Origin: a candidate division TM6 bacterium GW2011_GWF2_28_16
Lineage (GTDB): Bacteria; Patescibacteriota; Microgenomatia; UBA1400; PJMF01
DNA: 64,000 nucleotides
Reading direction: 5' to 3'
NCBI GenBank assembly: GCA_001029715.1
Contig: CP011212.1
Location: 769,066-833,065 of the forward strand
Part shown: piece by piece, positions 44,054 to 60,747 of the stretch
Layout of the letters: every line of letters begins with the position of its first letter
Position numbering within the stretch: position 1 is the first letter of the stretch
Notes under the pieces: generated by a model
Databases searched by the model: none
Seen by the model: only the letters and a program-made list of their open reading frames with translations
What the model was told of the DNA's origin: nothing
Made by a program: the position numbers and the translations under genes

Positions 44054-46078
44054 CTACTTTTTCAAAAACTCATCTAGCAAACTCAAATCTTGTGCACCTA
44101 AATCGCCACTTTGACTTAATTCTGCTTTTAATTCGCCGTTTTTGATCAATTCTTCTGCTCTCTCACGAGCTTTACCGCGCACGCGCACACCAACCTTATT
44201 AGCTTCAATTTCGCTGTCGCCAATAATAAGCATTAATGGCACTCTCGCTACTTCAGCAGCTCGAATTTTAGCCTGCAAACGCTCGGAGCGGTCATCAATT
44301 TCTACTCTAACGTCCTGGTCCAATAATTGGTTCATGATTTTTTGCGCATATTCCAAATGACGATCAGCGATGGGCAAAATTTTAACCTGCACTGGCGCAA
44401 ACCAGACTGGAAAATCGCCACCGTGTTGCTCAATTAAGAAAGCAAAGAAGCGTTCAAAAGAGCCAATTAAGGCACGATGAATTACAAAAGGACGTTGTTT
44501 TTCACCTTTTTCATCGACATAAGTAATGTCAAAGCGTTCTGGTAAGTTAAAGTCCACCTGAATCGTTGAAATACTATCTTCTTTGCCAAAAACATTCACT
44601 GCTTGAACATCGAGTTTGGGACCATAAAAAGCCGCCTCGCCTTTGGCTTCAACATAATCAACTCCGGCTTCATTGAGAATTTCGCGCATGATGTTTTCAG
44701 CTTTTTCCCAATCACTGCGCTTACCACAAGCTTTGAACTTTTCTTTATCTGGATCTGAAATTGAAAGACGGAAGTGATAATTATCGAAACCCATATCTTT
44801 GTAAAAAAGATCTAACATTTTCATTACTTCTTTGAATTGGTCCTTCAATTGCTCTGGTGTACAGAAAATATGAGCATCATTTTGCGTAAAACCGCGGACT
44901 CTCTGCAAACCATGCAATTCGCCAGATTTTTCGCGACGATAAACAGTGCCAAATTCACCCATCTTAACTGGCATGTCGCGGTAGCTATGACTTTTAAGTT
45001 TATAGACCATCATTCCAGCAGGACAGTTCATTGGTTTGGGATAATAGACTTCAGGCTGTCCTATAACTTTTCCCGAATCATCTTTTTCTTCGTAGGTCAA
45101 GGCTGGATACATACTATCTGCATAAAAACCTAAATGTCCTGATGTTTCAAATAATTCTTTTCTATTCAAATGAGGAGTCAAAATATGAACATACCCGAAG
45201 CGTCGCTCCATTTTCATCATGTAATCTTCCAAGACCCTGCGCATAGCATAGCCATTTGGCAACCAAACTGGTAAACCCTGACCAATTTCTGGAATGATCG
45301 CAAATAGCTCCATTTCTTTGCCAATCTTACGATGGTTGCGCTCTTCAGCCAGTTGTTTCTTGGTTAAATAATCATCTAAGTCAGCCTGTGAAGAAAAAGC
45401 TGTGCCGTAAATACGCGTCAGCATTTTATTTTTCTCATCACCGCGCCAATAGGCACCGGCGATACTCAAAAGTTTAAAAGCTTTGATTTCGGAAATTTTC
45501 TCGACGTGAGGACCCTTACACAAATCAGCAAAAGAAGCTAACTTAATACTAGCTTTATCGCTGTTTGACATCATTTCTAAACCAGCAATCAATTTTTTAT
45601 CTGCTTCAATTTGCTCGGGACGACCCGTCAAATACAGAGTAATTTTTTCTGGATTTCTCTCTAGCATCTGATGTTTGATCATCGATTTGCCATCACTCAC
45701 CGATTCACTTAGCTCAAAATCCTCAGCATGTTCTAAGCCATCGAGTAATTCTTGCTTATAAGAATTATTGGCAAAAATTTGTCTCGCTACTCCGAGAGAA
45801 ACCTCTACTCTTTCCATCAACAAACCTTGCTGGATAAGTTTTTTCATTTCTTTTTCAATCTTAGGAAAATCTTTTTCAGTGATTTTTAAGCCTTTTTCTT
45901 TGGCACTTTCGGCGATATCAAAGTCAAAATAAAAACCATCGTCGATGGCTGGCCCCATGGCTTTAATAATCACTGGATTACTTTTCTCATCACTGCCATA
46001 AAGTTTTTCCATGACTATAGTCAGAACGTGCTCCGCGCTATGACGCATAAGGAACAATTGGTCGATTGGTTTTTGCAT
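44054..46078 (-). CDS. thrS: threonyl-tRNA synthetase (begins at the editing/second additional domain; no separate N-terminal TGS segment evident)
   Basis: 'HSAEHVL' (HxxxH) editing-domain motif, class II catalytic core, C-terminal anticodon-binding domain. Confidence 0.9.
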   Translation of the reverse strand: MQKPIDQLFLMRHSAEHVLTIVMEKLYGSDEKSNPVIIKAMGPAIDDGFYFDFDIAESAKEKGLKITEKDFPKIEKEMKKLIQQGLLMERVEVSLGVARQIFANNSYKQELLDGLEHAEDFELSESVSDGKSMIKHQMLERNPEKITLYLTGRPEQIEADKKLIAGLEMMSNSDKASIKLASFADLCKGPHVEKISEIKAFKLLSIAGAYWRGDEKNKMLTRIYGTAFSSQADLDDYLTKKQLAEERNHRKIGKEMELFAIIPEIGQGLPVWLPNGYAMRRVLEDYMMKMERRFGYVHILTPHLNRKELFETSGHLGFYADSMYPALTYEEKDDSGKVIGQPEVYYPKPMNCPAGMMVYKLKSHSYRDMPVKMGEFGTVYRREKSGELHGLQRVRGFTQNDAHIFCTPEQLKDQFKEVMKMLDLFYKDMGFDNYHFRLSISDPDKEKFKACGKRSDWEKAENIMREILNEAGVDYVEAKGEAAFYGPKLDVQAVNVFGKEDSISTIQVDFNLPERFDITYVDEKGEKQRPFVIHRALIGSFERFFAFLIEQHGGDFPVWFAPVQVKILPIADRHLEYAQKIMNQLLDQDVRVEIDDRSERLQAKIRAAEVARVPLMLIIGDSEIEANKVGVRVRGKARERAEELIKNGELKAELSQSGDLGAQDLSLLDEFLKK

Positions 46079-46265
46079 AAGATCTTTCTTGATTTTAGTT
46101 ATTGTTATTTTACTTGTTTTTTTAGTATTTTGCGAAAGGTAGCAGTTCTGGTAACCTTAAGCTCCCATAATTGAGCTTAAGTGGGCCTGCCACTGTTTGT
46201 GGAACCGGATCTGAGAAATTTGGTTCGGGAGTCCAATTCTCCTCAAGTCCACCAGCTTTTATTTA

Positions 46266-46294
46266 TTGACAAAATTGTCAAAAAAATATATATT
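46266..46294 (+). promoter_or_regulatory. near-consensus sigma70 promoter (TTGACA-17-TATATT) embedded in the palindrome TTGACAAAATTGTCAA
   Basis: -35 at 46266-46271, a 17-nt spacer, -10 at 46289-46294. Points rightwards into a region with no annotated plus-strand gene. Confidence 0.4.
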
Positions 46295-46346
46295 TAGGCA
46301 ATTCTCAGACAAGGTTCCAAATTGCCACAACCAGTGGTGAACCATT

Positions 46347-46378
46347 AAATCGCTTTTAAAAAAGCGATTTTTTGTTTT
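46347..46378 (+). terminator. plus-strand rho-independent terminator (AAATCGCTTTT/AAAAGCGATTT hairpin + TTTTTTGTTTT)
   Basis: About 80 nt downstream of the promoter at 46266-46294, delimiting a possible small transcript. Confidence 0.45.
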
Positions 46379-46420
46379 AATCCGCTTCGGGCATTCCTTC
46401 GTCGTTTAAGCTCAGTCACA

Positions 46421-46452
46421 AAAAATCCCGCTCTTGGCGGGGTTCTCATTTT
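46421..46452 (-). terminator. minus-strand rho-independent terminator ending the 5-gene operon (CCCGC/GCGGG stem followed by ATTTTTTGTG)
   Basis: 'aaaaaatgagaaccccgccaagagcgggattttttg' on the minus strand, 100 nt after the stop of gene 46555-48645. Confidence 0.55.
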
Positions 46453-46554: not shown

Positions 46555-48645
46555 TCAACCCGCTCCGCCACCACCACCTCCACCTCCACCGCCACCACCT
46601 CCAGAAAAACCTCCACTTGAACCACCTCCAGAAGCACCATAGCTGCTAGTGGCTGAGCTAGTCAGATTGGCAAAAGCACCGCCCAAAGAATTCAGCGAGT
46701 CAGTCAAAGAACCTAAGTTAATAGCACTTAAATTACCTACTGCGGAGCCATGTAAACTATCAAAGCTAGCAACTCCCCAATAGGTTCCCAAAACTCTTTG
46801 GTCAGCATCTGAGAAATGTACTGGCAATTGTGATAAAGCTTTCATCGACACTCCAAACAAAGTCCCATAAACCAAATATTTCTCCCACAAAATCACGCTA
46901 TCGATCGAATAGTCTTTAGTTTTTTTATAATCGAACATATGTTTTTTAAAAGCTTGCCACGCGCTAGCCTCTTCCCAACCTTTTTTAGTTCTTTTTTGGG
47001 CAAAATGTTGCAGCATAGAAAAAACCATTCCGATCGTAAAAAAGAGCAATAAATTAATTACAGCTAGAAATAAACCGATAGTAACTAAACTTGTGGTTTT
47101 TACTGATGGCTCTCCTTCTAACAAGTTACCAAGCATAAACAGGAGAATAAAGCTAAAAACAGGCACTAGAAAGACCCGTAGAGCCGAAAAACTTCTTGCG
47201 TAATCATAAGAATCTCTTTCAAAAAAACCTTGGCTAAGACCGCTATCTAAAGATGTTTTTTCCAAACCCTTAAAAAAGTTATAACTAGAAGAAGGATTAC
47301 TCTTAATATATTGGCTAATGTCGGTTAAAGCTAAGCGTCTTTTGGTTTTTTCAGTTGGTGTGGCGCTTAAAGCTCCTCGCTTTGTCCAGGTTTGTTCTTT
47401 TTCATCAAAAAATTGAAGATAACTTTTAGCAATTTTTTCAGTCAAAAACTCATAAACTTCCTGCTCCACTGCGGCTAATTCACTGGGTGAACGATTGGTT
47501 TTTTCCAAGAAATATTTGTACTCTTTGTGCAAAAAACCTTCTTTCTTATTGCTGCGAGTGATTTTGAAAAGTTTTTTAGCCACCAAAGACAAAACAGAAG
47601 CGGTAAAAACCTTTGGACTTAAACTTTTAGTCGCAGATAAAAGTTGTACCACCAAAGCTGGCTCCAAATCACTAGGTGGTTCCCAAACTCCACTTAAATT
47701 TTTTAATTTTTTATCTTTGCCCAAACGTAAAAACTTGGAAAACTCAACTACACTCAGGAAAACTCCAAGTAGAAAAAGCAATATCGTTGCTAAAAGATAG
47801 AGCAAACCCAAACGTTCGTTTTTCTTAACTTTAGCAATTGTTTCATCAATAAAAGATTGCTCCTCTTCTAAAATACTCGCTTCATTTGAAGAACCATTGA
47901 TTTCTCTCAAAAACATATTTGTTGGTAATAAAACTCTCCCTTCAAAAAACTTTCCAACTGGCAAGCGATCAGCCTGCAAAGAGACGAGATAAAGTCCAGT
48001 CTTTTCATCTGGCAAAGCAGAAATACTCACTTTCGCATTAAGTGGACCATGGCCAAAAGCCTTAACGCTATCAAGCTGGCTGGCCAAAATTTCTTTTGGC
48101 AAATAAATATCAACTTTGATGTTTTGGCTTGACACTTCCCAAGCATCACCAATAAATTGCCAATAAAGTTCAGCTATGTCTATGTGCTTAGTAATAGCAT
48201 TGCCAACTTTATAGCTCAAAACAAAATCTTTAACTTCGTAATTAGCCTGAAAGTGCCACTCTAAAAAATATTTGTCGCCCCGATCATCGATCAGAAAAGT
48301 ATTATCAGGATTGTTTCTGGGTTCTACTAAATTAGCTGAAGCCGTAGCCAAAGCTTTATAACAAAGCTCATTATTTTTTTCACAAAGCTTGAAATCGCTC
48401 AAAACATAAGGCACTTCTCTACCGTCGTTGCCTGGAACTTTGTTAATTTCTTGATAAACAAAACGATAATCACCTTGGAAATTAAATTGGCGCTCTTCCG
48501 TCACATCCATTGAGCCATCTTTATTGATGAAGGCTTGAATATTAACTGTGTCGATACTGTATTCTTTAGCAAAAGCACTACCAGAAAAAATGAAGGTAAG
48601 AATGAAAAATAGAAATAAAATTTTTTTATTCATAGCGTAAAGCAT
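46555..48645 (-). CDS. DUF2207-like membrane protein: signal peptide, large extracytoplasmic domain, transmembrane helices, C-terminal Gly-rich tail
   Basis: N-terminal 'KKILFLFFILTFIFSGSAFA', central hydrophobic helices, C-terminal 'GGGSSGGFSGGGGGGGGGGGGGAG'. Overlaps the upstream permease gene by 20 nt. Confidence 0.5.
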   Translation of the reverse strand: MLYAMNKKILFLFFILTFIFSGSAFAKEYSIDTVNIQAFINKDGSMDVTEERQFNFQGDYRFVYQEINKVPGNDGREVPYVLSDFKLCEKNNELCYKALATASANLVEPRNNPDNTFLIDDRGDKYFLEWHFQANYEVKDFVLSYKVGNAITKHIDIAELYWQFIGDAWEVSSQNIKVDIYLPKEILASQLDSVKAFGHGPLNAKVSISALPDEKTGLYLVSLQADRLPVGKFFEGRVLLPTNMFLREINGSSNEASILEEEQSFIDETIAKVKKNERLGLLYLLATILLFLLGVFLSVVEFSKFLRLGKDKKLKNLSGVWEPPSDLEPALVVQLLSATKSLSPKVFTASVLSLVAKKLFKITRSNKKEGFLHKEYKYFLEKTNRSPSELAAVEQEVYEFLTEKIAKSYLQFFDEKEQTWTKRGALSATPTEKTKRRLALTDISQYIKSNPSSSYNFFKGLEKTSLDSGLSQGFFERDSYDYARSFSALRVFLVPVFSFILLFMLGNLLEGEPSVKTTSLVTIGLFLAVINLLLFFTIGMVFSMLQHFAQKRTKKGWEEASAWQAFKKHMFDYKKTKDYSIDSVILWEKYLVYGTLFGVSMKALSQLPVHFSDADQRVLGTYWGVASFDSLHGSAVGNLSAINLGSLTDSLNSLGGAFANLTSSATSSYGASGGGSSGGFSGGGGGGGGGGGGGAG

Positions 48646-51193
48646 TTAAAGCTGAAATTTTTGTAGCTCTATAAGACGGATACATACCTGTAGCAACAGC
48701 GATAATGAAAGAAAGTGCCACTACACCCGCACCTAAATAAAATGGGATATAAACCAATTGAATGTAGCCGAGCCCTTTAGTTACAGAAATCATTGATAAA
48801 ATCAAACTAACCAATTGACCTGCCAAGGAACTAATTAAAAGTCCACACACCCCTCCAGACAAACCCATAACAATCGACTCTGCCAAAAATAAACGTTTCA
48901 CTTCATTTGATTTCATACCAATAGCCTTCATTAAGCCAACTTCTCTAGTTTTCTCCAAAAGTGAAACTGTTAGCGTATTAAACATTCCAAGCGCAGCAAC
49001 ACTTAAGGCCACCATGCCTAAAATTGAAAGCACAAACCTCACAGTATCAAACAAATCATTAATCTTACCCACTGTATCTACTACTGAGCTAGTTTGAAAA
49101 CCACTGGATTCAATACTTTGACGAATTTGATCAATTTTGTTTTGATCTTTAACTACAACTTTAATTTGAGAATAATTTTCTACTCCTAGACCCTTAATAT
49201 CATTAAATGGCATATAAAAAGCTGGCGTTTTTTCATCAGGAATAACAGCTACAATTGTAAAATCAGTTGGAGCAGATTCTGCCTGATAATCTGCCTTAGA
49301 AAAGAATTCTTGATCAAGCATAAAAGTAGTGTTAAAAACTTTCCCAACTGCATCAGCTTCATCAATTGCTAAAATTTTGAGCATAGCTCTATTAACTACG
49401 GCAACTTTTTGTGCCGACTCACGTAAAGGAATAACTTCTCTTTTTGTAATTGAAGCAGATGAAGAACCATCGCCCATACTATTCCAGTCCAAAGTACCAT
49501 CAGGCAATTGTTGCGCCATCAAAATAGTTCCATCTGCTAAAGCAATCTGACCACTATCGCTAGCCTCTTCTGAATCACTAGCTAAAGCACTTCCACTTGA
49601 TGAAGCACTGTTGGCAAGAGCACTCTCAATATTCTCTGCCAAAGATGCGCTAGCAGTTGATTCTCCTAAAACTTGACCGAACATTAGTGGTTCATCCATA
49701 TCTTCAATTAATACTCTATCTGCTCTTATATATGCTATTGCTTCTTTTTGTTTATTGTTGTCATCTAAATCTCTTAAATAAGTGTTATCACAAGTCTCTC
49801 CGCAATCAACTTTCTTCCAAAGTGGCAAACTCGCTCTCACCCAATAACCGACATTTTTGCCATTAACATTGCTGCCTACATTGCCCCAACCACTCTCGCT
49901 GTAATAAGATTCTCCATAAACTAATTCTCCAGAAATTAATAAATCATTTGTTTGAGAAGCATAAGTATTAAGAATCTGTTTGTCTTTAAAAACATCCGAG
50001 TAAAGTTCAATATATTTATTTTTGCCAATACTAAAGCTAATTGACTCGACTGTATCTCCCTCTATAAAACTTGGAAAAGCCGAAGCTAAAACTTTATATC
50101 GATCAATACTCATACTATCCTCAGTCATGTATCCTTGAATCAATTCTTGTCCATTTCCAGATTTAATAACTTGATACTTGCCGTCTACACAACCAAGCTC
50201 ATTTTCATCACAGATTCCACTCTTCCAGAGTGGCACAGTATCAACTATCCATGGACTGAAAACATTACTAAACAAATCGATGCCTTCGATTAAAGGTTCG
50301 CTGGTCTCATAAGACTCCCCCCAAACCTCACTTGCTTCAACATCTCCAACTCCTCTACTCGTGTAACCAAGAATTTTGGATTTTGTACTAGGCTCCGTAT
50401 AAACTGGCTTCCAAACCAATGGATAAATTGAGTAACGAGCTTGAGATAGCTCCTTTCCCAATTTTGCGCCACTCAAACGTTTAATAACTGCACCAGCAAC
50501 CTGACCAACAACATCGTCGTTTGATTCTATTTCTGCGGAGAGCTCCTTGTCTTCAAAAAGCGTCCCTTTAACTGGCTGAATAGCCGATTGTTGCAAAAAT
50601 TCTTTAGTTACTCCGTAAGCAACTACATCTGAAACAGAGTTGTTATAATTAACTTTAGAGACAATAGAAATCATTGGAATAACTAGCTCCACTCCTTCAA
50701 TATTTTTTAAATCATCCAAAGTTTTATCATTGATCGTTAAAGAAGCAGATTGACCGATGGTGACATTAATCTGTTTCATTTCATCTAATCTAGCTACTCT
50801 CGAAATAACTAGTTTTTGGACGCCATAGCCTAAAGATAATAAAAACACCACTGCTCCAAAGCCAATAGCCATGCCACCAATAGTAATAATAGTGCGGGTC
50901 TTCTTTAATTTTAAATGTCTGACAGCTAAATGTACTAAATCTAAAGAAGAAATTTCGCCCTCATCTTTGGAGTTAAGAGGTCCAATGATTTTTTTATAAA
51001 TAGTTTTAACTGGTTTTCTAAATGGGTTAGCAAGAATTCTAATAATTGGCCAATGACTAATAAATTTCAGAACATCAAAAAAAAGATAAATAATGACAAT
51101 TAAGAAAAAACGTAAGAAAAAGAACAACTCCTTAACAAAAGCAATGTAATTAAAACTCTTAAGCTTGGAAAGAAAGGATTTTAGTTTTGTCAT
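48626..51193 (-). CDS. MacB/FtsX-type ABC transporter permease with a very large (~600 aa) extracytoplasmic domain
   Basis: Transmembrane helix 1 'IITIGGMAIGFGAVVFLLSLGYGV', then a long soluble insert, then an FtsX 3-helix bundle at the C-terminus ('MKAIGMKSNEVKRLFLAESIVMGLSGGVCGLL'). Overlaps the ATPase gene by 4 nt. Confidence 0.7.
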   Translation of the reverse strand: MTKLKSFLSKLKSFNYIAFVKELFFFLRFFLIVIIYLFFDVLKFISHWPIIRILANPFRKPVKTIYKKIIGPLNSKDEGEISSLDLVHLAVRHLKLKKTRTIITIGGMAIGFGAVVFLLSLGYGVQKLVISRVARLDEMKQINVTIGQSASLTINDKTLDDLKNIEGVELVIPMISIVSKVNYNNSVSDVVAYGVTKEFLQQSAIQPVKGTLFEDKELSAEIESNDDVVGQVAGAVIKRLSGAKLGKELSQARYSIYPLVWKPVYTEPSTKSKILGYTSRGVGDVEASEVWGESYETSEPLIEGIDLFSNVFSPWIVDTVPLWKSGICDENELGCVDGKYQVIKSGNGQELIQGYMTEDSMSIDRYKVLASAFPSFIEGDTVESISFSIGKNKYIELYSDVFKDKQILNTYASQTNDLLISGELVYGESYYSESGWGNVGSNVNGKNVGYWVRASLPLWKKVDCGETCDNTYLRDLDDNNKQKEAIAYIRADRVLIEDMDEPLMFGQVLGESTASASLAENIESALANSASSSGSALASDSEEASDSGQIALADGTILMAQQLPDGTLDWNSMGDGSSSASITKREVIPLRESAQKVAVVNRAMLKILAIDEADAVGKVFNTTFMLDQEFFSKADYQAESAPTDFTIVAVIPDEKTPAFYMPFNDIKGLGVENYSQIKVVVKDQNKIDQIRQSIESSGFQTSSVVDTVGKINDLFDTVRFVLSILGMVALSVAALGMFNTLTVSLLEKTREVGLMKAIGMKSNEVKRLFLAESIVMGLSGGVCGLLISSLAGQLVSLILSMISVTKGLGYIQLVYIPFYLGAGVVALSFIIAVATGMYPSYRATKISALNALRYE

Positions 51194-51945
51194 GACTTTT
51201 CTGCCCTTCCTATATTACCTCTTTTAGAAACGCTGAGTTTTTTTAGACGCTCATCATTGGCTGAATACTCACCAACTACAACTCCATCGGCCATATTAAC
51301 AGATCTTGAAGCAAACTTAAGATATTCCAAATCGTGAGTAACCATAATGACTGTTTTTCCCTTATCATTAGATTGCTTAAATAAGGCCATAATGTCTTCA
51401 CTAGCTTTTGAATCCAAATTACCAGTTGGCTCGTCTGCCACGATCAAAGCTGGATCAGAAATCAAAGCTCTAGCTAAAGAAACACGTTGCTGCTGACCAG
51501 ATGAAAGTTCGGCAGGATTTTGGAGAGCACCTTGCTCCATGCCAACCATTTTTAAAACTTCCATCGCTCGTTTTTCTCTTTCTTCTTCTGGCAAACCACG
51601 CAGAGTTAAAGGGAAGTATACATTTTCAATAACGTTGAGCGATTTTACCCAGTTAGATTGCTGATAAATAATTCCAACCTGTTGCTTTCGCATTTGCGCA
51701 CGTCCATCTTCGTCAAAAGCATCGTAAATATTCTTGCCTAAGAAAATTACTTCTCCTTTGGTTGGAGGCTCCAAACCAAGCAAAATATTTAGCATAGTGC
51801 TCTTACCACAACCAGAGGGACCAAATAAAATCAAAAAATCACCCTTATTAACTGAAAAACCAGCTCCTTTAATAATCTGAGTTTCCTGAGTTCCCAGATT
51901 AAATGATTTATGAATTTCAGTTAGTTTAAGTATTTGTTCTGCCAT
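51190..51945 (-). CDS. ABC transporter ATP-binding protein (MacB/LolD-like)
   Basis: Walker A 'GPSGCGKST', signature 'LSSGQQQRVSLARAL', Walker B 'IVADEPTGNLD', H-loop 'VTHD'. Confidence 0.85.
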   Translation of the reverse strand: MAEQILKLTEIHKSFNLGTQETQIIKGAGFSVNKGDFLILFGPSGCGKSTMLNILLGLEPPTKGEVIFLGKNIYDAFDEDGRAQMRKQQVGIIYQQSNWVKSLNVIENVYFPLTLRGLPEEEREKRAMEVLKMVGMEQGALQNPAELSSGQQQRVSLARALISDPALIVADEPTGNLDSKASEDIMALFKQSNDKGKTVIMVTHDLEYLKFASRSVNMADGVVVGEYSANDERLKKLSVSKRGNIGRAEKS

Positions 51946-51952
51946 TTTATTT

Positions 51953-52342
51953 TTATTCTATTTTCGTTGGATCAAAATTAATTTTTTTAACTTCCGACCA
52001 CAAAAATGGACTGTCTTTATCAGTATGCAAAGATAGATAAAAGCCATCGGCTGGAATATCAGTTAGTAGAACTGCATGAATTGTTCCAGGAACACTGCTT
52101 GTTTGCTGTGCGACTTGTGAAAGGTTGGTTTCACTTTCTCCATACTTTGCAAAACCAATAGATTCTTTTTCTGAAGTCCAAAAAATAATAGCCTGATGAG
52201 GATCTACAAAAGTTACTTCAAAATGGTTCTCAATTTGGCGCTGTTGTTTATTAAAGATAAAAATTGACAATAAAAGCCCAGTTATAAAAGCCAAGCTTAG
52301 AACGATTAAAGCAATTTTTTGCTTTATATTTAATATTTTCAT
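51953..52342 (-). CDS. small membrane-anchored protein (N-terminal helix + ~100-aa extracytoplasmic domain) between the giant gene and the ABC genes
   Basis: 'IALIVLSLAFITGLLLSIFIF' helix; no motif. Spaced 2 nt from the giant gene and 7 nt from the ATPase gene. Confidence 0.4.
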   Translation of the reverse strand: MKILNIKQKIALIVLSLAFITGLLLSIFIFNKQQRQIENHFEVTFVDPHQAIIFWTSEKESIGFAKYGESETNLSQVAQQTSSVPGTIHAVLLTDIPADGFYLSLHTDKDSPFLWSEVKKINFDPTKIE

Positions 52343-52344
52343 TT

Positions 52345-55300
52345 TTACTTAGTTCCTAAAAATCCAAATATCAAAGACATATTGGAAACCACCAAATCTA
52401 AGGCATTGTCCGTAGCTTTTGGAGTAATTACTACTTTATCAACTGACTCTCCCACATTACTATACTGATCTTTTGATAAGGCTCGCAAGTGATAAACCTT
52501 CGATGGAGTTAATCCAGAAATAACAACTATATGGTGACTTGTTAAGGAAGCATCTTCTTGAGTTTTTTGTGAATAAGTTGAACCACTACCCTCTCCAAAC
52601 TCAATTTGGGCAGATGCTGGTTCATCCGTGTTAAACGAAACTAATAATTGAGCGGTTGATTCTTCTCCTACTCCAAGAATTTCTCCTTCCACTCTGAGAT
52701 CACTAATTTGAGGAGGCCTACTATCTGCCGAGGTTGCAATCTGTTGGAACTCACCAACAGCTTCATTACCAACGGCATCTTTACCTTTGATTAAAATTCC
52801 ATAAGTTGTCTGTGAATCAAGATCATAAATAATCATTTGATGTTTACCAGACTTAAGAGCAAGATTGACTTCGTCTTTGGCTGCCCCCGGAGCGGTAACT
52901 GGATAATAGGTTACAATTGAAGAAATACTGGTGTTTGATTCCCAAGTAACTAATAGAGTCGATCTAGCAGTCCCTTTAACTTGACTCACTTTAATATTTT
53001 TGATTTTTGGTCTTGGTAAAGTTTCGAATGAATGAATTTCACCCTCATATTCTTCACCCTCTGAGTCAAAAGAGTTAATTTTGTAATAATATTTAGTGCC
53101 ATCTTTCAAGTCTGAAAGTTGCACAGTGTGCGTACCCTCTCCAGAGCCAGTCACTACATTTTCGATTCCGCCAAAAGCAGATGATTCACCAAAATAAACT
53201 CTAACGCTAGCAGCATTTTTTGATATAAATTGAATTAAAGCACTGTCCAAACCCATACTTTTTACCTGAGGTTCTTCTGTTGTTGGAGCTGGCTCTGTAA
53301 CAAAAGTTGCTTCAGCAGACTCACCAGTGTTTCCATCTTCATCCGTCCATTTAGCAATATAATAGTAAGTAGTTCCCGGAGAAAGGTTGAGTAAGTTTAA
53401 TGCATGATTAGTTGCTTGAATGGAATTTGAAACTTCTTCATCAAAATAATCACCAGGACTCGTTCCATAAGATATCCTCGAATCAGCTGTTCTTGCTGTG
53501 GACCAAGCAACAGAAGCTTTTTTAGTGGTCACATTTGAAACCACTGGCTCAGATACTAGACCAGCTGGTTCAATAAATTTTCCATCTGGAAATAATTCAA
53601 CCACTTCAGAAAATGCACCACAATTATTAGTGCTATCACAAACTTTGACTTTGTAATAATACTCTTGCTGAATCAAACCAGTATCAACGTAAGAAATACC
53701 ACCACTAGTAGCTATTTGAGCAAATGTTTCACCATCTATTGATCGATAAATAGCATAATGATCAGAAATACCACCCTCCGACGGAGCTTCCCAAGACAAA
53801 GCAATCTTCCAAGAGCTAGTGGCTTTAACAGAAACATCAGCAATATCCATATTAAGTGGAATTCCTGGAGCAGTGGTGTCTGCTGTAAAGATAACCGACG
53901 CATAATTTGAGTAATTTATGTTTCCCGCTTCGTCTTTAGTCACAATATAAAGAACATTTTCACCTGGTAAAGTTGCATAAGCCCCAGCAACTAAATTTCT
54001 TACACTAGTTCCAGTGGTACTATGGGCTGTTGGCAATGCATTAATACTGTAATAATAAGACAAATTAGAAACTGAGCCATAATAAGTTCCTGTTGCTGGA
54101 GGATCCCAACTAAAAGCAAAGGAATTTTCCGTATTAGATGATGGCGTGACTACTAAATTAGTTGGAGGTGCTGGAGCATTGCCGCTATCTACATAATAAT
54201 ATGGTGTAGATGCGTAATCACTATAGTTACCAGCCTCATCTTTACTACGAACATAAAAAGTATTCGCTCCCACTTTATGTGAAGGTATACCAGTGACAGA
54301 AGTGCTAGTGATACATTGATCTTCTGCATAAGTTCCTGAAGTGGCAGCAGTTTTATAACAATATCCAGTAATCTGTGCTCCACTGCTGGTGGACTCACTC
54401 CAAGAAAAATCAAAACTATCCGTAGCTGAATAGCCAGATGGATCAGCCGATAAATCAGCTGGAGCGGCTGGGGGTCGCGAATCATATTTATAAATGAAAG
54501 GTGCCCAAGCTTCTGCTGAAACATTTCCAGCATTATCAATCGTCTTAACTCTCAAATAATAAGTCTCTCCATCGGTCAAATTGCTAGCAGAATAGTTGCT
54601 ATCAACTTGAAGCGAACCGTCTTCTTCTGGATTTGCTGATGAATTTGTTCCAAAGTAAACATAATATCCAGCTACCCCTGAACCAGTACTTGTATCAGAA
54701 GCTCCATCTGTAGATTCTGCATCTGGCCAATCAAAATATGGATTACTATGCCCATACCAATTTGAGGAAACTATTGCCGTTCCAGGATCACTATTGCTAT
54801 AAGTAGCTAAACCAGAAGTTTGTGGATTTGTTGGCGCAGAAGTGTCTTTGTAATAATTAACCGTATAATCATTAATAACGCCAGAATAGACGCCATCTGA
54901 TGATGAAAGTTCAAATTTTATTTCAAGGTAACGAGCTGCTGGAGACTTAATTTCATAAATATAGCTTGAACCATTCTTCTTCTCAGAGGCTACTGCAGTC
55001 CAAGACGACCAAGTACTATTGTCAGCAGAACTGCGTGTTTTAATGCTAAGAGAAGCGTTATTTGCTAAAACATAATCAACTTGTAAATTTATCCATTTGT
55101 AGACTGAATCTAAATCGTGAGAAACAGAAGTATAAGTTCCCTCTTCTTCAAAAGAAGAAGTAGCTGTCTCCATAATGTATGTATAAATTCCATTGTCATA
55201 ACCACCAGTGCCGGTACCAGATAGCATAAAAACTTTGTCCACTCCATTACTTTCACCAGATCCACCAACATAAATTTTAGAGGGTGCATTGCCTAATTGA

Positions 55301-58300
55301 GTCCAATTGTTATCTACCACTGAATATTTATAAAAATCATTATCATTTTCACCTCTAGCAGCATAGATATTTCCATCTCCACCGTAAGTCGCGAAGCCAT
55401 CATTGTAAACATCTATATTCAGGTCGCTAACAGCTGGATCACTCCAAGTATTGCTTGCAATGTCATAGCGATAAAAAGGATTATTGGCTACGTTTTGGCC
55501 CCTTAAGGTATAAATATAGTTATTACCATCAAAAACCAGCTCAGCTCCATAACCCAAACCAGCAGGCGAAGCAGTCATAGTAGACCATTTGCTACCAGCA
55601 CTACCCTGCGTATCAAATCTATAGAAAGTAGTATTTGCTCCACCCCTATTTAAATAAATATAACGAGATCCGTCATAAGCCATAGAGCTACCATAATCTG
55701 TAACAGCAAGAGTTGGATCATCAACTTCTTCAGACCAAGTATTCGAAGCAATGTTATAAACATAAAATCTTTGTAAATAATAGCCACCAGTTAGATAAAT
55801 TTTATTTTGCGTACTATCATAAACTAATGAAGATCCAGAATAAGTCCCAGTAGGAGTTGAAGCCAGTTTTTGCATTGACCCAGTGCTCGAATCATAACGC
55901 ACAAAATCATCTGAATAGTTTCCTTTGGTTAGATAAAAATAATTACCATCACCCTTAACAAGATCTTCTCCATAGCCAGGATATACATAGTCCGTACCTT
56001 GATATGTTGTCCCGAACAAACCTACATTAGGGATTAGCCAGCTATCCTTTGAAACACTATATTTATAAAAATTAGTTCTATTGCCACCAATAATGGCATA
56101 TAAACTGTCACCAACATTTTTAAGATTGGCTCCATAATAAAAGGTGTATGGGGCTGAAGAAACCTCCTCCCAAGTTTGATCTGAAGTTTTAAACTTATAC
56201 ATCTTGTCAGAATAATAACCAGGAACAAAATAAACTGCCTCCGCGCTTGGAACGTATTCTATTGACGATCCTAAATAAGATAATTGAGGTAAATCTGGCA
56301 GAACCGCCCAAGAATTTGAGTTCATATTATAAACAGCAAACCCATCGCGAATATTACCTTGAGTAGCATAAACAAAACCATTTTCTCTATCTATTGCTAG
56401 GTCAGCTCCAATATAAGCACTATTATTAACAGCATTGGTAGTAGCACCAAAATCTAAGTTTGATAAAGATTCCCAACTATCCCCAACAGCGTCATATCTC
56501 CAAAAAGCATCATCATTATTTCCACGCATTACATAAACGTGTCCAGAACCGTCATATTCCATGGAAGCACCATAATAAACTGCTAAAGGGGCGTCACTTG
56601 CATCTTCATCACTCCAAATATTGTTTTCTATGTCATAACGATAAAATGAAGAAGTATTATTACCACGCAAACCATAAAGATAACCGTCTGGTCCTTCCAC
56701 TACTCCACCGCCAATATAAATATTTCCTGGAGCATTAGCTAAAGTCGACCAAGTATCACTAGCTAGATCGTAACCATAAAAAGTTGCTACATTTGCACCT
56801 CTAAAAGCAAAAAGCTTGTTTAATGATGCAACGTAGGCTGTATTTTTTGCTCCATATTGCATAGTTGCTGGAACATTACTTAATGGCTCTTGTAACCAAA
56901 AACCTCCCTCTCTGCTAGCTAATTTTAGTTGATTATTGCCTGTGTTAATTTCATCAGCAGTACCAACAAAATCAGTTATTGTTAAACTTTGCGGTGGCGA
57001 AATACCTGCATAAACATAAGTGAATATTGTGCTTGCATCACTAATATTCCCATAGCTATCTTTTGTTTTAATTCTTAAATAATAAGAACCAGTACTTAAG
57101 CTTTCAGTTACAGTGTAATTACTATTTGTCTGAAAAAATCCTACTGATTCTGGATCAGCTACTTCATTACTACCAAAATAAACATAATATCCAGCAACCT
57201 CAGATTGCGCATCGGTTGCTCCACTCCATGAGAAGTAGGGGCGAATATAATTATATGTTTCTCCACTAGTCAGTGCTATACCAGCAACCTGCTGAGAGAG
57301 ACCACTAATGGCATCTGGATTGCTTGGTGCCAAAGTATCACCTGCATAAGAAATACTAATCTCACTTAACGTCGGGCTACTAGCAGAGCCGCTTGAAGCC
57401 ACCAGTGTTGCTTTAACCTGAATAAATCTTTGAGCTGGAGAAGAAATCACTCCGCTCGCCACAACAACCCAATCACTCCAAGATAAAGCGTCACTACTAG
57501 TTCTAGTTTCATAAATAATACTGCTATCGTCTGGAGTTGATGAGGTAGCAGAAAAAGCAGTAAAACTAGAAACGTAAGCTAGATCTTTAATTTCAGAGGT
57601 CCATGATCCAGTGGCATAATACTTATTTGCTGCAGGAGTATAAGTGAGAATATTTTGGCGACCATTTCCATAAGAAATATAAAAAGAATTATTGCTATCA
57701 TATTCAATAGAAGCACCTGCATAAACTCCATTATCCTGAGCATAATAACCAGGAATACTCTGCAATTTCCTCCAATTATCTAAAGAAATATTGTACTCAT
57801 AAATGTCTTTTTTGTACCAACCTGCCAAAGCAACAATTTTTCCATCATGGTAAGCAAGATCGGTGCCGTAAAATGGAGCAAATGGAGGCTTAGCAACTTC
57901 TGTCCATACATTGTCATTAATTGTATATTTAAAAAATCTGCTAATACCAACTCCAGGAATATAGAATATATCAGTACCATCAGAGATAAGACGAGAACCA
58001 TACGAAGACTCTGCATCCACAGGTAAATCAGCCACTGAGACATCATCCCAAGAGTTTCCAGAAATACTGTATCTCCAAAAAGAATTAGTGGTAGCTCCAC
58101 GCGTTGCATAGATATAATCTCCAGAACCAGGATAGGATAGAGCTCCTCCAAAACGCACTGTAGTTGGCGGAGCAGTCATCGTAGTCCAACTGTCTCCTGA
58201 AGGACTGTATCTATAAAAACTATTAGTGTTCCCGCCTCTAAAAAAATAAAGATCAGAACCAGCTACTACTCCTTTGACATCATCTGTCATTGTTCCTGGA

Positions 58301-59463
58301 GTAGCGGTTAAGGTGGTCCAAACATTGGCGGAAGGATCATATTTATAAAATGTAGAGTTTGCACCACGCAATACATACATGTCATCATCGTAATAAACGA
58401 TATCACTACCTGTGGATAGAGTGCCTGGAGCATCATCAACGCCAATAAACGAATTTGTTGCTGGATCGTATTTCCAAAAATTGTATGTTCCATTTCCTTG
58501 AAAAACATAAACATAACCATCATTGCTGTTATAGATAGAACCAGCATAACGGGAAACTGCTGGGAGATTGGCTAAAGTTGACCAAGTATTTGAAACAATG
58601 TCATAAGCATAAAAAGAATTTGTTCCACTCTGTCTGGTAACATAAATTTTGCTGCCATCGGTGGAAATTTCAACGTCTTCATTAATTGTGACCGGTAAAA
58701 CAGCCATTGTTGCCCAAATGTTAGCGGTTAGGTCATATCTATAAAATGTGTTTGTATTACTTCCACGAGGCGTGTACAAATAATTCCCCACTCTAACCAA
58801 ATCTGATCCAGAAGAAGTTGTAGCTGGAGTACCAGCCATAGGACTCCAAGAATTATTGCCAACGTCGTATTTATAAAAATCTTGTGTACCACCCGAACGG
58901 AGAGCATAGATACTCGTGCCATCATTTTCCAAACTGGCTCCAGAGTAAATCAGATCTGGCAAATCGCTCAACATTTCCCAAGAATCATTAGCCACCGAAT
59001 AACGAGCAAAAGCAGTTTGATAGCCACCAAACATGGCATAAACATAACCATCCATATATTCCAACTCTGATCCGTAGTAAGTTCCTCTCGGCAAATTAGC
59101 CAAAGTAGTCCATTTATCATTTTCAGGAGAATATTTCCAAAATAGAACATCTCCAGTTCCTCTTGAAACATAAATATCTTCACCATCAAAGGCTAAAGCC
59201 GTACCTGCGCTTAAAGTAAGATCTGGAGCTCTCCAACTTTTTGCTCCAAAAGTTCCAGCTGCACTTATTGAAACATCTCCTTCTTTGATAGAAAAATCTA
59301 AATTTAGATTTGTCCCAGCATCCCAATCAGAACTAGTAGTAAAAAATGTTTCTGAGGCCCTAACTGGAAATTCATAAAAAAGTAAATTTAAGGCAAAAAA
59401 AGACATCACAACAAAAGCAATTCTCAACACAAAAAACTCGCGATTGTTGAATCCCGAAACCAT
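52345..59463 (-). CDS. giant (2372 aa) membrane-anchored or secreted surface protein: Kelch-type beta-propeller repeats interleaved with and followed by fibronectin type III-like domains
   Basis: N-terminal hydrophobic segment 'FFVLRIAFVVMSFFALNLLF'. More than 25 repeats of ~47 aa matching the Kelch blade pattern (IYV..G.....FY.YD...N.W..L...P). FN3-like modules such as 'APSNPDAISGL...YYVYFGSNE...YYLRIKTKDSYGNIS' and 'APTNPQTSGL...YYLRVKTIDNAGNVS', then at least 5 tandem FN3-like modules at the C-terminus. No LPxTG-type sorting signal. Confidence 0.7.
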   Translation of the reverse strand: MVSGFNNREFFVLRIAFVVMSFFALNLLFYEFPVRASETFFTTSSDWDAGTNLNLDFSIKEGDVSISAAGTFGAKSWRAPDLTLSAGTALAFDGEDIYVSRGTGDVLFWKYSPENDKWTTLANLPRGTYYGSELEYMDGYVYAMFGGYQTAFARYSVANDSWEMLSDLPDLIYSGASLENDGTSIYALRSGGTQDFYKYDVGNNSWSPMAGTPATTSSGSDLVRVGNYLYTPRGSNTNTFYRYDLTANIWATMAVLPVTINEDVEISTDGSKIYVTRQSGTNSFYAYDIVSNTWSTLANLPAVSRYAGSIYNSNDGYVYVFQGNGTYNFWKYDPATNSFIGVDDAPGTLSTGSDIVYYDDDMYVLRGANSTFYKYDPSANVWTTLTATPGTMTDDVKGVVAGSDLYFFRGGNTNSFYRYSPSGDSWTTMTAPPTTVRFGGALSYPGSGDYIYATRGATTNSFWRYSISGNSWDDVSVADLPVDAESSYGSRLISDGTDIFYIPGVGISRFFKYTINDNVWTEVAKPPFAPFYGTDLAYHDGKIVALAGWYKKDIYEYNISLDNWRKLQSIPGYYAQDNGVYAGASIEYDSNNSFYISYGNGRQNILTYTPAANKYYATGSWTSEIKDLAYVSSFTAFSATSSTPDDSSIIYETRTSSDALSWSDWVVVASGVISSPAQRFIQVKATLVASSGSASSPTLSEISISYAGDTLAPSNPDAISGLSQQVAGIALTSGETYNYIRPYFSWSGATDAQSEVAGYYVYFGSNEVADPESVGFFQTNSNYTVTESLSTGSYYLRIKTKDSYGNISDASTIFTYVYAGISPPQSLTITDFVGTADEINTGNNQLKLASREGGFWLQEPLSNVPATMQYGAKNTAYVASLNKLFAFRGANVATFYGYDLASDTWSTLANAPGNIYIGGGVVEGPDGYLYGLRGNNTSSFYRYDIENNIWSDEDASDAPLAVYYGASMEYDGSGHVYVMRGNNDDAFWRYDAVGDSWESLSNLDFGATTNAVNNSAYIGADLAIDRENGFVYATQGNIRDGFAVYNMNSNSWAVLPDLPQLSYLGSSIEYVPSAEAVYFVPGYYSDKMYKFKTSDQTWEEVSSAPYTFYYGANLKNVGDSLYAIIGGNRTNFYKYSVSKDSWLIPNVGLFGTTYQGTDYVYPGYGEDLVKGDGNYFYLTKGNYSDDFVRYDSSTGSMQKLASTPTGTYSGSSLVYDSTQNKIYLTGGYYLQRFYVYNIASNTWSEEVDDPTLAVTDYGSSMAYDGSRYIYLNRGGANTTFYRFDTQGSAGSKWSTMTASPAGLGYGAELVFDGNNYIYTLRGQNVANNPFYRYDIASNTWSDPAVSDLNIDVYNDGFATYGGDGNIYAARGENDNDFYKYSVVDNNWTQLGNAPSKIYVGGSGESNGVDKVFMLSGTGTGGYDNGIYTYIMETATSSFEEEGTYTSVSHDLDSVYKWINLQVDYVLANNASLSIKTRSSADNSTWSSWTAVASEKKNGSSYIYEIKSPAARYLEIKFELSSSDGVYSGVINDYTVNYYKDTSAPTNPQTSGLATYSNSDPGTAIVSSNWYGHSNPYFDWPDAESTDGASDTSTGSGVAGYYVYFGTNSSANPEEDGSLQVDSNYSASNLTDGETYYLRVKTIDNAGNVSAEAWAPFIYKYDSRPPAAPADLSADPSGYSATDSFDFSWSESTSSGAQITGYCYKTAATSGTYAEDQCITSTSVTGIPSHKVGANTFYVRSKDEAGNYSDYASTPYYYVDSGNAPAPPTNLVVTPSSNTENSFAFSWDPPATGTYYGSVSNLSYYYSINALPTAHSTTGTSVRNLVAGAYATLPGENVLYIVTKDEAGNINYSNYASVIFTADTTAPGIPLNMDIADVSVKATSSWKIALSWEAPSEGGISDHYAIYRSIDGETFAQIATSGGISYVDTGLIQQEYYYKVKVCDSTNNCGAFSEVVELFPDGKFIEPAGLVSEPVVSNVTTKKASVAWSTARTADSRISYGTSPGDYFDEEVSNSIQATNHALNLLNLSPGTTYYYIAKWTDEDGNTGESAEATFVTEPAPTTEEPQVKSMGLDSALIQFISKNAASVRVYFGESSAFGGIENVVTGSGEGTHTVQLSDLKDGTKYYYKINSFDSEGEEYEGEIHSFETLPRPKIKNIKVSQVKGTARSTLLVTWESNTSISSIVTYYPVTAPGAAKDEVNLALKSGKHQMIIYDLDSQTTYGILIKGKDAVGNEAVGEFQQIATSADSRPPQISDLRVEGEILGVGEESTAQLLVSFNTDEPASAQIEFGEGSGSTYSQKTQEDASLTSHHIVVISGLTPSKVYHLRALSKDQYSNVGESVDKVVITPKATDNALDLVVSNMSLIFGFLGTK

Positions 59464-59826
59464 ATAATATTAATACTATATAATGTGAAAAAAGAAGTCG
59501 AGCCTATATTCTTTATAAAAAGGATCAAAATAGATCTAAATAGATAATTTTTGGAAAAATTGCTCAGTAAAAAAACAGCTATTTCTAAGCTTCTTCCAAA
59601 CTTCATCATTTATCACAAAAAATCGTCTTTTTAAGGGCCTTTTAAGCACTCTTTTCAAATTTGAAAAAAGATGTATAATTCACTTCTGTTCCAAAGACAG
59701 TGTGGCTCGAAAGAGTTAAAAATCGCACCGAGGAAAATAAATTTCTTTATTTTATCTCCCCTGCTTTTTCTCACATCTTTGGCACAAAATTGAAAATAGA
59801 AAATTAGTAATTTTTGAAAGACTTTT

Positions 59827-60354: not shown

Positions 60355-60747
60355 ATGGCAGATGAGAAAAAACTCTCAGAAAAAGTCCAAAAGATCGTTG
60401 ACGGAGTCAAAGAACTTTCCCTTATGGAAGTTTCCGAGCTCGTTAGTGCTCTAGAGGATGTCTTTGGTGTAAGCGCAGCCGCTCCTATGATGGGTGCTAT
60501 GGCAGCCGCTCCAGCAGCAGCTGTTGAAGAGAAAGACGAATTTGACGTCATTCTTAAAGAAGCTGGTAGCAATAAAATTGCCGCCATCAAAGCCGTGCGT
60601 ACTCTTAAACCTGAATTAGGTTTAGGTGAAGCCAAAACTTTCGTCGAATCAGCTCCTAAGCCAGTCTTAGAAGGTGCTAAGAAGGAAGATGCCGAAGCAG
60701 CCAAAAAGACTTTGGAAGAAGCCGGTTGCGTCGTTGAATTAAAATAA
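60355..60747 (+). CDS. rplL: 50S ribosomal protein L7/L12
   Basis: N-terminal dimerisation helix, Ala-rich hinge '[16 protein letters not shown]', C-terminal domain '[29 protein letters not shown]...EAGCVVELK'. Confidence 0.9.

Follow-up and report, generated by a model that had tools for sequence, protein, structure and literature searches.

A conserved gene module of CPR bacteria pairs a giant surface protein with a type VII ABC ATPase and permease

Type VII ABC systems include MacAB, LolCDE, FtsEX, YbbAP, HrtBA and BceAB. Proteins of this class act by mechanotransmission (PMC5985334, PMC8333309, PMC7668044, PMC12646458), and LolCDE and YbbAP pull hydrophobic anchors or compounds out of the outer leaflet (PMC8333309, PMC12646458). 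We focus here on a locus in which the genes for such an ATPase and permease lie directly downstream of a gene for a giant surface protein, and on the differences between this locus and the described systems. The organism is a groundwater ultra-small (CPR) bacterium, and the whole 64-kb stretch of its DNA that was analysed is referred to as the window.

Sequence matches of the permease in the PDB are to YtrF, MacB and LolC/E/F, the closest solved relative being YtrF of Bacillus subtilis (PDB 9o9x). YtrF has 436 aa compared with 855 aa in the window permease, lacks both the N-terminal helices and the extra beta-rich stretch (~270 aa) of the latter and, unlike the permease here, has no giant partner encoded alongside ytrEF; what YtrEF does is itself not settled (PMC12772383). 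FtsEX, with its partners EnvC, PcsB, CwlO or RipC, also differs: the window ATPase scores 199.4 bits against the FtsE cut-off of 264.85, and FtsX models give the permease 25.9–31.9 bits against cut-offs of 225–255. The partner here is a predicted 2372-aa FN3/Kelch fibre, and Pfam detects neither a hydrolase nor a hydrolase-activator domain in the five operon proteins. For LolCDE, the permease reaches 64.5 bits with lolCE (cut-off 362) and the ATPase 192.8 bits with LolD (cut-off 307.75). The substrates of LolCDE are lipoproteins, whereas the signal peptide of the giant contains no Cys and the giant thus has no lipobox, its putative anchor being a C-terminal amphipathic helix; nor is a LolA-like acceptor conserved near the cassette in the related loci. 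MacAB-TolC shares the permease fold, the ATPase subfamily and, in relatives, MacB-like fusions of ATPase and permease, but there is no HlyD-type adaptor among the operon proteins by Pfam, 80 related loci have no conserved gene for a MacA/HlyD-family adaptor, and the cassette of the window has no visible outer-membrane duct gene close by. Type 1 secretion (LapA/LapBCE, RTX adhesins) resembles the locus in placing a giant, repetitive, adhesin-like gene beside a dedicated ABC system. Its exporter, however, is of the ABC_membrane type and not FtsX/MacB-type, its substrates carry a C-terminal secretion signal where the giant bears a Sec-type signal at its N-terminus, and Pfam reports no RTX repeats in the giant. 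The locus thus belongs to none of FtsEX, LolCDE, MacAB-TolC and type 1 secretion.

The five open reading frames of the operon, all on the minus strand, were recovered in the ORF listing of the window, in agreement with a preliminary description of this DNA. Counted from the 46555 end upward, they encode a DUF2207 membrane protein with a poly-Gly tail (696 aa, 46555..48645), a type VII (MacB/FtsX-type) ABC permease (855 aa, 48626..51193), an ABC ATPase of the MacB/LolD/FtsE subfamily (251 aa, 51190..51945), a 129-aa accessory protein (51953..52342) and the giant surface protein (2372 aa, 52345..59463), with junctions of -20, -4, 7 and 2 nt. The first of these values varies with the start codon chosen: if the DUF2207 product begins at Met5, as in one gene call that gives 692 aa, the overlap computed from the window coordinates is 8 nt, and the orthologous junction in a relative (L087) likewise overlaps by 8 nt. 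Downstream of the DUF2207 gene lies a terminator-like hairpin, G+C-rich and followed by a T-run, on both strands (46424-46444 on the plus and 46441-46427 on the minus strand). A promoter scan was uninformative, with 47 sites against 47.6 expected. In this genome, DUF2207 is probably co-transcribed with the cassette. Sixteen contigs from independent assemblies, NCBI GCA_000991725.1 among them, carry an identical 2372-aa ORF with the genes in unchanged order, and the locus is therefore not an assembly artefact. The frames, their junctions and domains, the downstream hairpin and the poly-Gly tail are all as previously described, and the Pfam searches that had been suggested returned DUF2207, MacB_PCD, FtsX, ABC_tran, Kelch, beta-propeller and fn3.

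The permease matches MacB_PCD (E 4e-19) and FtsX (E 3e-15), the four-helix transmembrane FtsX domain (PF02687) lying at residues 724-847. Its AlphaFold2 model (pLDDT 87) places transmembrane helices at 98-133 and 704-845, has an overall fold similar to solved type VII members, and has a Porter-type core domain in the extracytoplasmic part, between TM1 and TM2. That part, of ~570 aa, is enlarged by a beta-rich insert at residues 237-505 (49679..50485, minus strand), which we tentatively assign to tandem SH3b-like domains resembling wall-binding SH3b. The ATPase, whose gene overlaps that of the permease by 4 nt, matches ABC_tran (E 8e-32), and its best NCBIfam models are FtsE, DarD, LolD and MacB (E 1e-55 to 1e-59), all below their equivalog cut-offs. 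On all four counts by which the class was assigned, the permease and ATPase are a type VII (MacB/FtsX-type) ABC transporter.

The 129-aa protein and DUF2207 differ in their relation to this pair. The 129-aa protein has a single N-terminal transmembrane anchor (residues 12-30) followed by one FN3/PAP-N-like domain. It matches no Pfam family, and its fold matches are weak: Pur_ac_phosph_N at E 0.016, and the last domain of the giant by hhalign at E 4.5e-4 with a probability of 33%. All 15 loci whose permeases exceed 800 aa have a homolog between the giant and ATPase genes and none of the 65 others does, and an extra sub-domain of the permease insert always occurs together with the protein. On this distribution, the 129-aa gene is a clade-specific fourth gene of Pacebacteria, Woesebacteria and Dojkabacteria. 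N-terminal extensions of the ATPase in relatives were considered as fused 129-aa-like domains and set aside as low-complexity tails or ORF-calling artefacts. The DUF2207 protein is a true member of its family, with the N domain at E 2e-25 and 90.5 bits (cut-off 24.4) and the C domain at E 3e-31 and 109.3 bits (cut-off 33), both above the Pfam gathering scores. Its poly-Gly tail was rejected as a ligand of the SH3b-like insert, as the tail would, from a reading of the TM segments, be cytoplasmic and DUF2207 is unlinked to the cassette elsewhere.

The giant opens with a predicted signal peptide of about 36 residues (...FPVRA|SE; 59356..59463, minus strand), its cleavage site read by eye, in which residues 10-28 form the only TM-like segment of the protein by hydropathy. 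A similar N-terminal hydrophobic segment is present in 38 of 50 long giant-homolog ORFs adjoining ABC genes, and we infer that the giant is exported via Sec. Behind the signal peptide lies a variable head of Kelch propellers and other modules (~residues 37-1529, 54877..59355, minus strand), shared with the closest clade only and alignable only with loci L007-L021 and L076; the protein also has two jelly-roll/FN3 modules. In other lineages the Kelch head is replaced by LamG, DUF2341, RCC1, FG-GAP or fibrinogen_C. The stalk (~residues 1530-2372, 52348..54876, minus strand), by contrast with the head, is conserved: these C-terminal ~850 aa, with roughly 8 FN3/PAP-N-like beta-sandwich domains supported by Pfam matches to fn3, Pur_ac_phosph_N and PhoD_N, are the only part common to CPR homologs. 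The alignment reaches the very C-terminus and conservation increases towards it, so that the conserved part of the giant is the one encoded nearest the ABC genes. Across CPR, the last domain and tail have a mean column identity of 67%, compared with 41-47% for the whole permease. The tail itself (52348..52431, minus strand) carries the motif ...ITPKATxNALDLVxxNLxxxFGFLG, a putative docking motif or in-plane anchor that recurs as ITPKATxNALxLVxxNLxxxFGFLG in 64 homologs. It forms an amphipathic helix (muH 0.32-0.43) that is not TM-like by hydropathy, and its amphipathicity is moderate, 2.7% of shuffles reaching the observed moment. When the final 60 and the final 351 residues were searched against curated sorting-signal models of the sortase/exosortase type (LPXTG, PEP-CTERM, MYXO-CTERM and others; NCBIfam, E up to 10), none matched the tail, and the sole NCBIfam match was a weak one of the FN3-like part to MXAN_2561_fam.

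To what extent do these genes travel together? The census covers 80 species-level CPR loci, the best-scoring subset of one pattern-based scan, and in 64 of these giant, ATPase and permease genes are adjacent and co-oriented. The giant gene lies 0.5-3 kb from the ABC pair in 5 further loci and is divergent in 1, and it is missing from only 2 of the loci that have upstream sequence. The locus titles name Pace-, Woese-, Dojka-/WS6, WWE3, Moran-, Nomura-, Collier-, Davies-, Shapiro-, Roizman-, Beckwith- and Saccharibacteria, and the permease is encoded in at least 564 species-level genomes. The ATPase gene always adjoins that of the permease, the two being fused in some relatives, and the near-zero spacing of all three genes is kept over very deep CPR divergences while other neighbours change. 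On the evidence of gene order, the conserved unit is a set of three genes, for the giant protein, the ABC ATPase and the MacB/FtsX-type permease, and DUF2207 is outside it, a neighbour caught in the transcription unit here. This conserved adjacency shows functional linkage and leaves the kind of mechanical act unspecified. The idea that the operon is a dedicated gene set thus holds for the giant and the ABC pair (64 of 80 loci adjacent, 6 nearby) and fails for the five genes together: DUF2207 is unlinked elsewhere and the 129-aa gene accompanies only permeases above 800 aa, so that the proposed co-occurrence survey finds three genes together widely and these two not. No description of the module was found by full-text literature searches or in PMC6744442. 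The annotation tables of a Saccharibacteria Tn-seq study, on the one CPR bacterium studied genetically, contain no clear ortholog (PMC10633639); the FN3 and RCC1 proteins and the ABC genes listed there, all non-essential, are small or stand beside a type I exporter fold. We thus do not use its phenotypes as functional evidence.

Relatives also provide evidence that the head is under diversification. In at least seven loci (L022, L024, L027, L031, L032, L037 and L062), a template repeat of ~120 bp, lying next to genes for an Avd-like protein and a reverse transcriptase, is matched by a variable repeat within the gene of the giant. The mismatches fall almost only at template adenines (e.g. 14/15, 17/18 and 10/10), and in 4 of the 7 loci the variable repeat begins some 360-420 residues from the start of the protein. 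These homologous giants resemble the CPR surface proteins diversified by DGRs in having a variable repeat in the head. The window giant differs: its head consists of Kelch propellers, neither a reverse transcriptase nor an Avd-like gene is present in the 64-kb window, and by this measure it is not a DGR target. The adhesin-like role originally suggested for the giant, and with it a ligand-binding one, fits the swapping of heads and the DGR targeting of the head in relatives.

The ribosomal setting of the operon was the most striking part of the earlier observation, and it proves incidental. Profile searches confirm secE (41400-41582), nusG, rplK and rplA (42829-43557) on one side and rplJ (59827-60330) and rplL (60355-60747) on the other, with thrS (44054..46078, minus strand; TIGR00418, 609 bits) between them. 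A T-box leader was sought upstream of thrS and gave no credible match. Upstream of rplJ is an L10 leader (59673..59756, plus strand; RF00557, 41.9 bits against a gathering score of 44, E 1.5e-5), which marks rplJ-rplL as a separate transcription unit; a promoter-like site lies near it at 59652-59679. In 28 related loci thrS directly follows rplA on the opposite strand, and relatives without the cassette in the gap keep the order rplA-thrS-DUF2207-rplJ, their DUF2207 orthologs (69% identity) lying between thrS and rplJ. As judged from these orders, the split between rplKA and rplJL is old and lineage-wide, and the gap normally holds thrS, its old resident, often with DUF2207. The four-gene cassette sits inside the gap only in the window species and in one of three equally close relatives, and has other contexts elsewhere; DUF2207 stands beside it only in the window species and L087, and in no other lineage. 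Comparative gene order thus indicates that the place of the cassette between rplA and rplJ is a recent local rearrangement into a pre-existing gap. The synteny comparison that had been called for thus speaks against the position as a special feature of the system. Horizontal transfer was considered as the source of the cassette and set aside: there is no G+C anomaly, the operon ranging from 0.355 to 0.388 with no difference from the remainder of the window, and four relatives (L008, L010, L012 and L087) suggest local reshuffling within a wecG-rplLJ-DUF2207-thrS-rplAK neighbourhood.

We propose, with middling confidence, that the giant is exported through Sec and serves as a ligand-binding fibre, with an ABC mechanotransducer that holds its invariant base and acts on it. 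The protein would cross the membrane through Sec by means of its signal peptide, and the variable head, judging from its swapping and from the DGRs of relatives, would bind a ligand on partner cells or substrates. The invariant stalk of ~8 FN3-like domains may span the wall, with the last domain and the amphipathic helix staying at the membrane, where the permease would hold them by its enlarged extracytoplasmic domain; strict gene linkage and the extreme conservation of both parts point to this interface. Like the permeases of other type VII systems, this one presumably forms a dimer, and the cytoplasmic ATPase would drive a mechanotransmission acting on the fibre base. By analogy with LolCDE and FtsEX, this movement most likely draws the C-terminal helix out of the outer leaflet, loads it into the complex and thereafter holds or actuates the fibre. 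In the Pace-/Woese-/Dojkabacteria clade, the 129-aa protein and the extra permease sub-domain are probably part of the socket.

Other readings of the same genes have to be weighed against this one. The fold is common to LolCDE and YbbAP, which act as outer-leaflet extractors (PMC8333309, PMC12646458), and the ABC pair could thus extract the C-terminal anchor just once and hand the fibre to the wall or S-layer, or shed it. The tail is amphipathic rather than transmembrane, as such a release would suit, and the SH3b-like folds of the ectodomain could place the complex at the wall. On the other hand, an entire FN3-like domain conserved to 67% column identity fits a lasting interface better, and the related loci keep no LolA-like acceptor near the cassette; we consider this release rather unlikely. 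Less probable still is that the ABC pair serves wall homeostasis or antimicrobial-peptide handling in the manner of YtrEF, BceAB or FtsEX, with the giant a mere neighbour. The kinship with YtrF, whose ytr operon responds to cell-wall stress (PMC12772383), and the resemblance of the insert to wall-binding SH3b speak for such independence, yet the order and near-zero spacing of giant, ATPase and permease persist across deep CPR while neighbours change, the ABC-proximal part of the giant is the conserved one, and FtsE, FtsX, LolC/E and MacB equivalog scores are far below cut-offs.

The preliminary description had taken the ABC pair for a dedicated exporter of the giant, with DUF2207 and the 129-aa protein as its parts. 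The view is an inviting one, since the gene for a giant, repetitive surface protein stands immediately before those of an ABC system and the junctions are tight, but it is largely refuted by fold and synteny and we give it very little credence. The permease is FtsX/MacB-type and not ABC_membrane, a fold that works by mechanotransmission and has no known transmembrane channel or path for a substrate (PMC5985334); the giant has its own N-terminal Sec-type signal; Pfam finds neither RTX/hemolysin-type repeats in it nor an HlyD-type adaptor among the five proteins; and DUF2207 is unlinked to the cassette in other genomes. It would be similarly surprising if the fibre were a receptor whose ligand binding the ABC pair relays inward, as in BceAB-BceS. 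Histidine kinase and response regulator genes do adjoin the cassette in 17 related loci, in 2 of which they lie between the giant and ATPase genes; however, the window and most loci have no such gene close to the cassette, and an example kinase, read by eye, has no obvious membrane-spanning stretch.

A fibre held at its base by an ABC mechanotransducer would bear directly on the biology of these organisms. CPR/Patescibacteria account for much of the diversity of bacteria and appear to live attached to other cells, and to our knowledge little is described of the molecules of this attachment beyond type IV pili. As a speculative extension that we regard as doubtful, the module could be an ATP-powered CPR attachment organelle, in which the type VII ABC pair serves as a motor that loads a wall-spanning fibre, keeps hold of it and actuates it mechanically, the head of the fibre being swapped or DGR-diversified for new hosts. 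If so, a giant adhesin would for the first time have an ABC mechanotransducer of its own, adding giant fibres as a new class of partner for type VII ABC systems, and the module would give molecular access to the way in which ultra-small episymbionts recognise their partners and hold on to them. Because it occurs in many CPR lineages and joins a variable, in places DGR-targeted head to an invariant base tied to an ATP-driven machine, the module is a testable candidate for host or substrate recognition, and it could fill part of the gap in our understanding of CPR attachment.

The five minus-strand ORFs of the preliminary description were all re-found at the same coordinates and in the same orientation, with the domains it had named. 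Pfam places DUF2207 N- and C-terminal domains in the product of 46555–48645, MacB_PCD and FtsX in the permease (48626–51193), an ABC ATPase in the 251-aa protein (51190–51945), and Kelch propellers together with fn3 and Pur_ac_phosph_N-type beta-sandwiches in the 2372-aa giant surface protein (52345–59463); the 129-aa protein (51953–52342) has no Pfam family. The junctions are −20, −4, 7 and 2 nt in coordinate order from 46555, and a terminator-like hairpin (46424–46444) lies 3′ of the DUF2207 gene. The nearest NCBIfam models are FtsE, DarD, LolD and MacB for the ATPase and ADOP, LolCE, MacB and FtsX for the permease, each match falling far under its equivalog cut-off. The neighbouring secE, nusG, rplK, rplA, thrS, rplJ and rplL were verified, G+C is flat over the operon, and the locus, from a CPR bacterium of Rifle groundwater, has been assembled 16 times independently (GCA_000991725.1 among the assemblies).

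A search profile made from permease homologs recovered relatives from at least 564 species-level genomes. In the best 80 of these loci, with titles from many CPR lineages, we matched every ORF to the window proteins, clustered the ORFs and counted arrangements (L007, L009 and L014 counted as adjacent, from coordinates). The giant lies directly upstream of the ABC genes on the same strand in 64 loci, lies 0.5–3 kb away on the same strand in five, and is divergent in one. Upstream sequence is lacking in eight loci, and the giant is missing despite upstream sequence in only two: L041, where this extends for only 1.3 kb, and L049, the second of two copies in its genome, of which the other (L024) is complete with all three genes. 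ORF clustering across these loci revealed no further conserved gene family around the cassette. Between giant and ATPase, a homolog of the 129-aa protein is present in all 15 loci with permeases longer than 800 aa and absent from the remaining 65. That all five genes form a conserved set was not borne out, since of all the loci compared just the window species and L087 have DUF2207 3′ of the permease. The system is thus a three-gene core of giant, ATPase and permease with a clade-specific fourth gene, the 129-aa one; DUF2207 is a bystander, probably captured into the transcript in this genome.

In some relatives ATPase and permease are fused, as in MacB (L008, 8978–12355; L022, 9155–12052; P0107, P0108, P0112 and P0120), and these fused proteins still carry the permease's N-terminal helical region. 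Genes for histidine kinases and response regulators adjoin the cassette in 17 related loci (including L028, L030, L036, L039, L041, L044, L047, L048, L053, L060, L064, L066, L074, L077 and L078), intervening between giant and ATPase genes in L030 and L077. Many TPA_asm MAG titles (L008, L010–L012, L014, L030, L031, L033, L034, L039 and others) name Pseudomonadales, Bdellovibrionales or Gammaproteobacteria; the gene content is CPR-like, with ribosomal proteins 50–56% identical to those of the window, and the titles look mislabelled.

The giant combines a conserved base with a variable head. Only residues ~1530–2372 are common to all homologs, with alignments extending to the last residue, and conservation climbs toward the C-terminus, where the last FN3-like domain and tail reach 67% mean column identity across lineages, against 41–47% for the whole permease. 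The tail (...VYHLRAxSKD..GN...SxDxVxITPKATxNALxLVxxNLxxxFGFLG), found in 64 homologs, is too low in hydropathy for a TM helix, has a helical hydrophobic moment of 0.32–0.43 and matches none of the curated sorting signals. Heads vary by lineage, with Kelch in the window and LamG, DUF2341, RCC1, FG-GAP or fibrinogen_C elsewhere. In relatives the head is the target of a diversity-generating retroelement (DGR): a reverse transcriptase gene adjoins the giant in 10 related loci, nine of which also have an Avd-like gene, and in seven of the 10 (L022, L024, L027, L031, L032, L037 and L062), with the DGR directly upstream of the giant homolog, a ~120-bp template repeat is matched by a variable repeat inside the giant gene (in L024, 3019–3137 and 5593–5711, locus coordinates). 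Mismatches fall at template adenines in 14/15, 17/19, 17/18, 10/10, 16/17, 17/18 and 6/6 cases, a bias that is the DGR signature and points to a head that binds ligands and is under pressure to diversify. No DGR is present in the window.

At its N-terminus the giant has a single hydrophobic segment followed by ...VRA|SE, and a like segment is present in 38 of 50 long homologous ORFs, so that export by Sec would be the simplest route. Giants of other CPR lineages conserve a signal-anchor motif (...RWQFNL...G.YLTLS...IPKIFA.DT...; L024, L025, L032, L037, L039, L042, L054, L062, L070, L074 and L075), which the Kelch-headed clade lacks, having an ordinary signal peptide instead.

The permease has the type VII fold, and type VII (MacB/FtsX-type) ABCs use mechanotransmission to act on a substrate or partner located outside the membrane, without a transmembrane channel (PMC5985334, PMC8333309, PMC7668044, PMC12646458). 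A beta-rich insert (residues 237–505) enlarges its ectodomain to about three times the usual size. Modelled alone (pLDDT 84), the insert gave no significant match in Foldseek and none in Pfam, so an assignment to SH3b-like domains is tentative. Among 1.84 billion representative proteins searched, only permeases of ~830–870 aa had the insert in full, and its first ~130 residues, with invariant Trp and Cys positions, also occurred in those of 640–750 aa; this extra sub-domain therefore appears together with the 129-aa protein. The latter consists of an N-terminal TM anchor and one domain with a weak likeness to the PAP-N/FN3-like stalk domains (Pfam E 0.016; hhalign E 4.5e-4, probability 33%).

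We propose that the giant crosses the membrane via Sec and that its FN3 stalk would span the envelope, the enlarged permease ectodomain binding the invariant last domain and amphipathic tail, with the 129-aa protein taking part in this clade. ATP hydrolysis would then shift the fibre base, which would be loaded from the outer leaflet and subsequently held or actuated. We give this mechanism as a whole about an even chance. The main rival, a one-time Lol-like extraction with release to the wall, we consider unlikely, and it is more doubtful still that the ABC pair functions independently of the giant with which its genes are so regularly linked. A sensor role seems very improbable, and we attach equally little weight to true export of the giant by the ABC pair, as the preliminary description had it.

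Each part of the fibre/ABC module belongs to a known kind: type VII ABC systems, surface proteins with FN3 and Kelch domains, and targets of DGRs. By membership tests it is none of FtsEX, LolCDE, MacAB-TolC or type 1 secretion, although it has a working principle in common with the first two. Full-text literature searches found no description of it; where CPR papers refer to FtsEX-type genes or to large surface proteins, they do so apart from each other, and a CPR protein-family survey does not mention the module.

As to its location, the block had been described as inserted into the ribosomal cluster; the cassette does lie in the gap here, but the five genes were not inserted as a unit. Mapping the window proteins onto 80 metagenomic loci around rplA relatives, we found thrS directly after rplA, on the opposite strand, in 28, all with rplA at least ~50% identical to that of the window, and the textbook rplA–rplJ adjacency in more distant relatives; the split by thrS (in some loci together with DUF2207) is thus old and lineage-wide. 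Sixteen of the 28 reach rplJ, none with the cassette between and nine with DUF2207 between thrS and rplJ (e.g. L092 and L130). These two also share with the window wecG and p232 (232 aa, 60840–61538, plus strand, same position), and L130 additionally the 141-aa gene (43616–44041, minus strand, same position); neither of these two proteins, which flank the region, has a family match. Only the window species (L089, rplA 98% identity) and L087 (permease 75% identical) have the cassette inside the gap. Since L087, with it, and L092 and L130, without it, are equidistant from the window organism (rplA 76–80%, DUF2207 69%, thrS 87–92%), its gain or loss there is recent.

Other features of this region were also recorded. 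Directly upstream of secE (39039–41331, plus strand) are genes for a 125-aa dockerin-domain protein and for a 642-aa Cys-rich one that has TM segments at its two ends; most related loci reaching that far (L089–L130) have the 642-aa gene there, and six the dockerin gene. The untranslated ~340 nt upstream of thrS (46079–46420, minus strand) contain no T-box or other Rfam family. A 93-nt tRNA-Asn (anticodon ATT, 2884–2976, minus strand) called by ARAGORN inside a 790-aa ORF (1699–4071) is probably a false positive, as Rfam did not confirm it.

Elsewhere the cassette adjoins rplL (L008), lies ~6 kb past wecG (L010, L012), occupies an unrelated context (L088, permease 63% identical) or is more than 10 kb from any ribosomal gene (L007, L013, L015). 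In a distant relative, L086, giant, ATPase and permease alone separate rplJ from rplA, and the boundary has therefore been used more than once. Such repeated use is plausible because rplJ is preceded by a promoter-like site (59652–59679) and an L10 leader (59673–59756, plus strand; RF00557, E 1.5e-5, its 41.9 bits just short of the gathering score of 44), with which rplJ–rplL would keep its own regulation and the rplA/rplJ junction would be a transcription-unit boundary. The recent arrival of the cassette among ribosomal genes is an ordinary local rearrangement; the point of interest is not this position but the widely shared coupling of fibre and ABC system.
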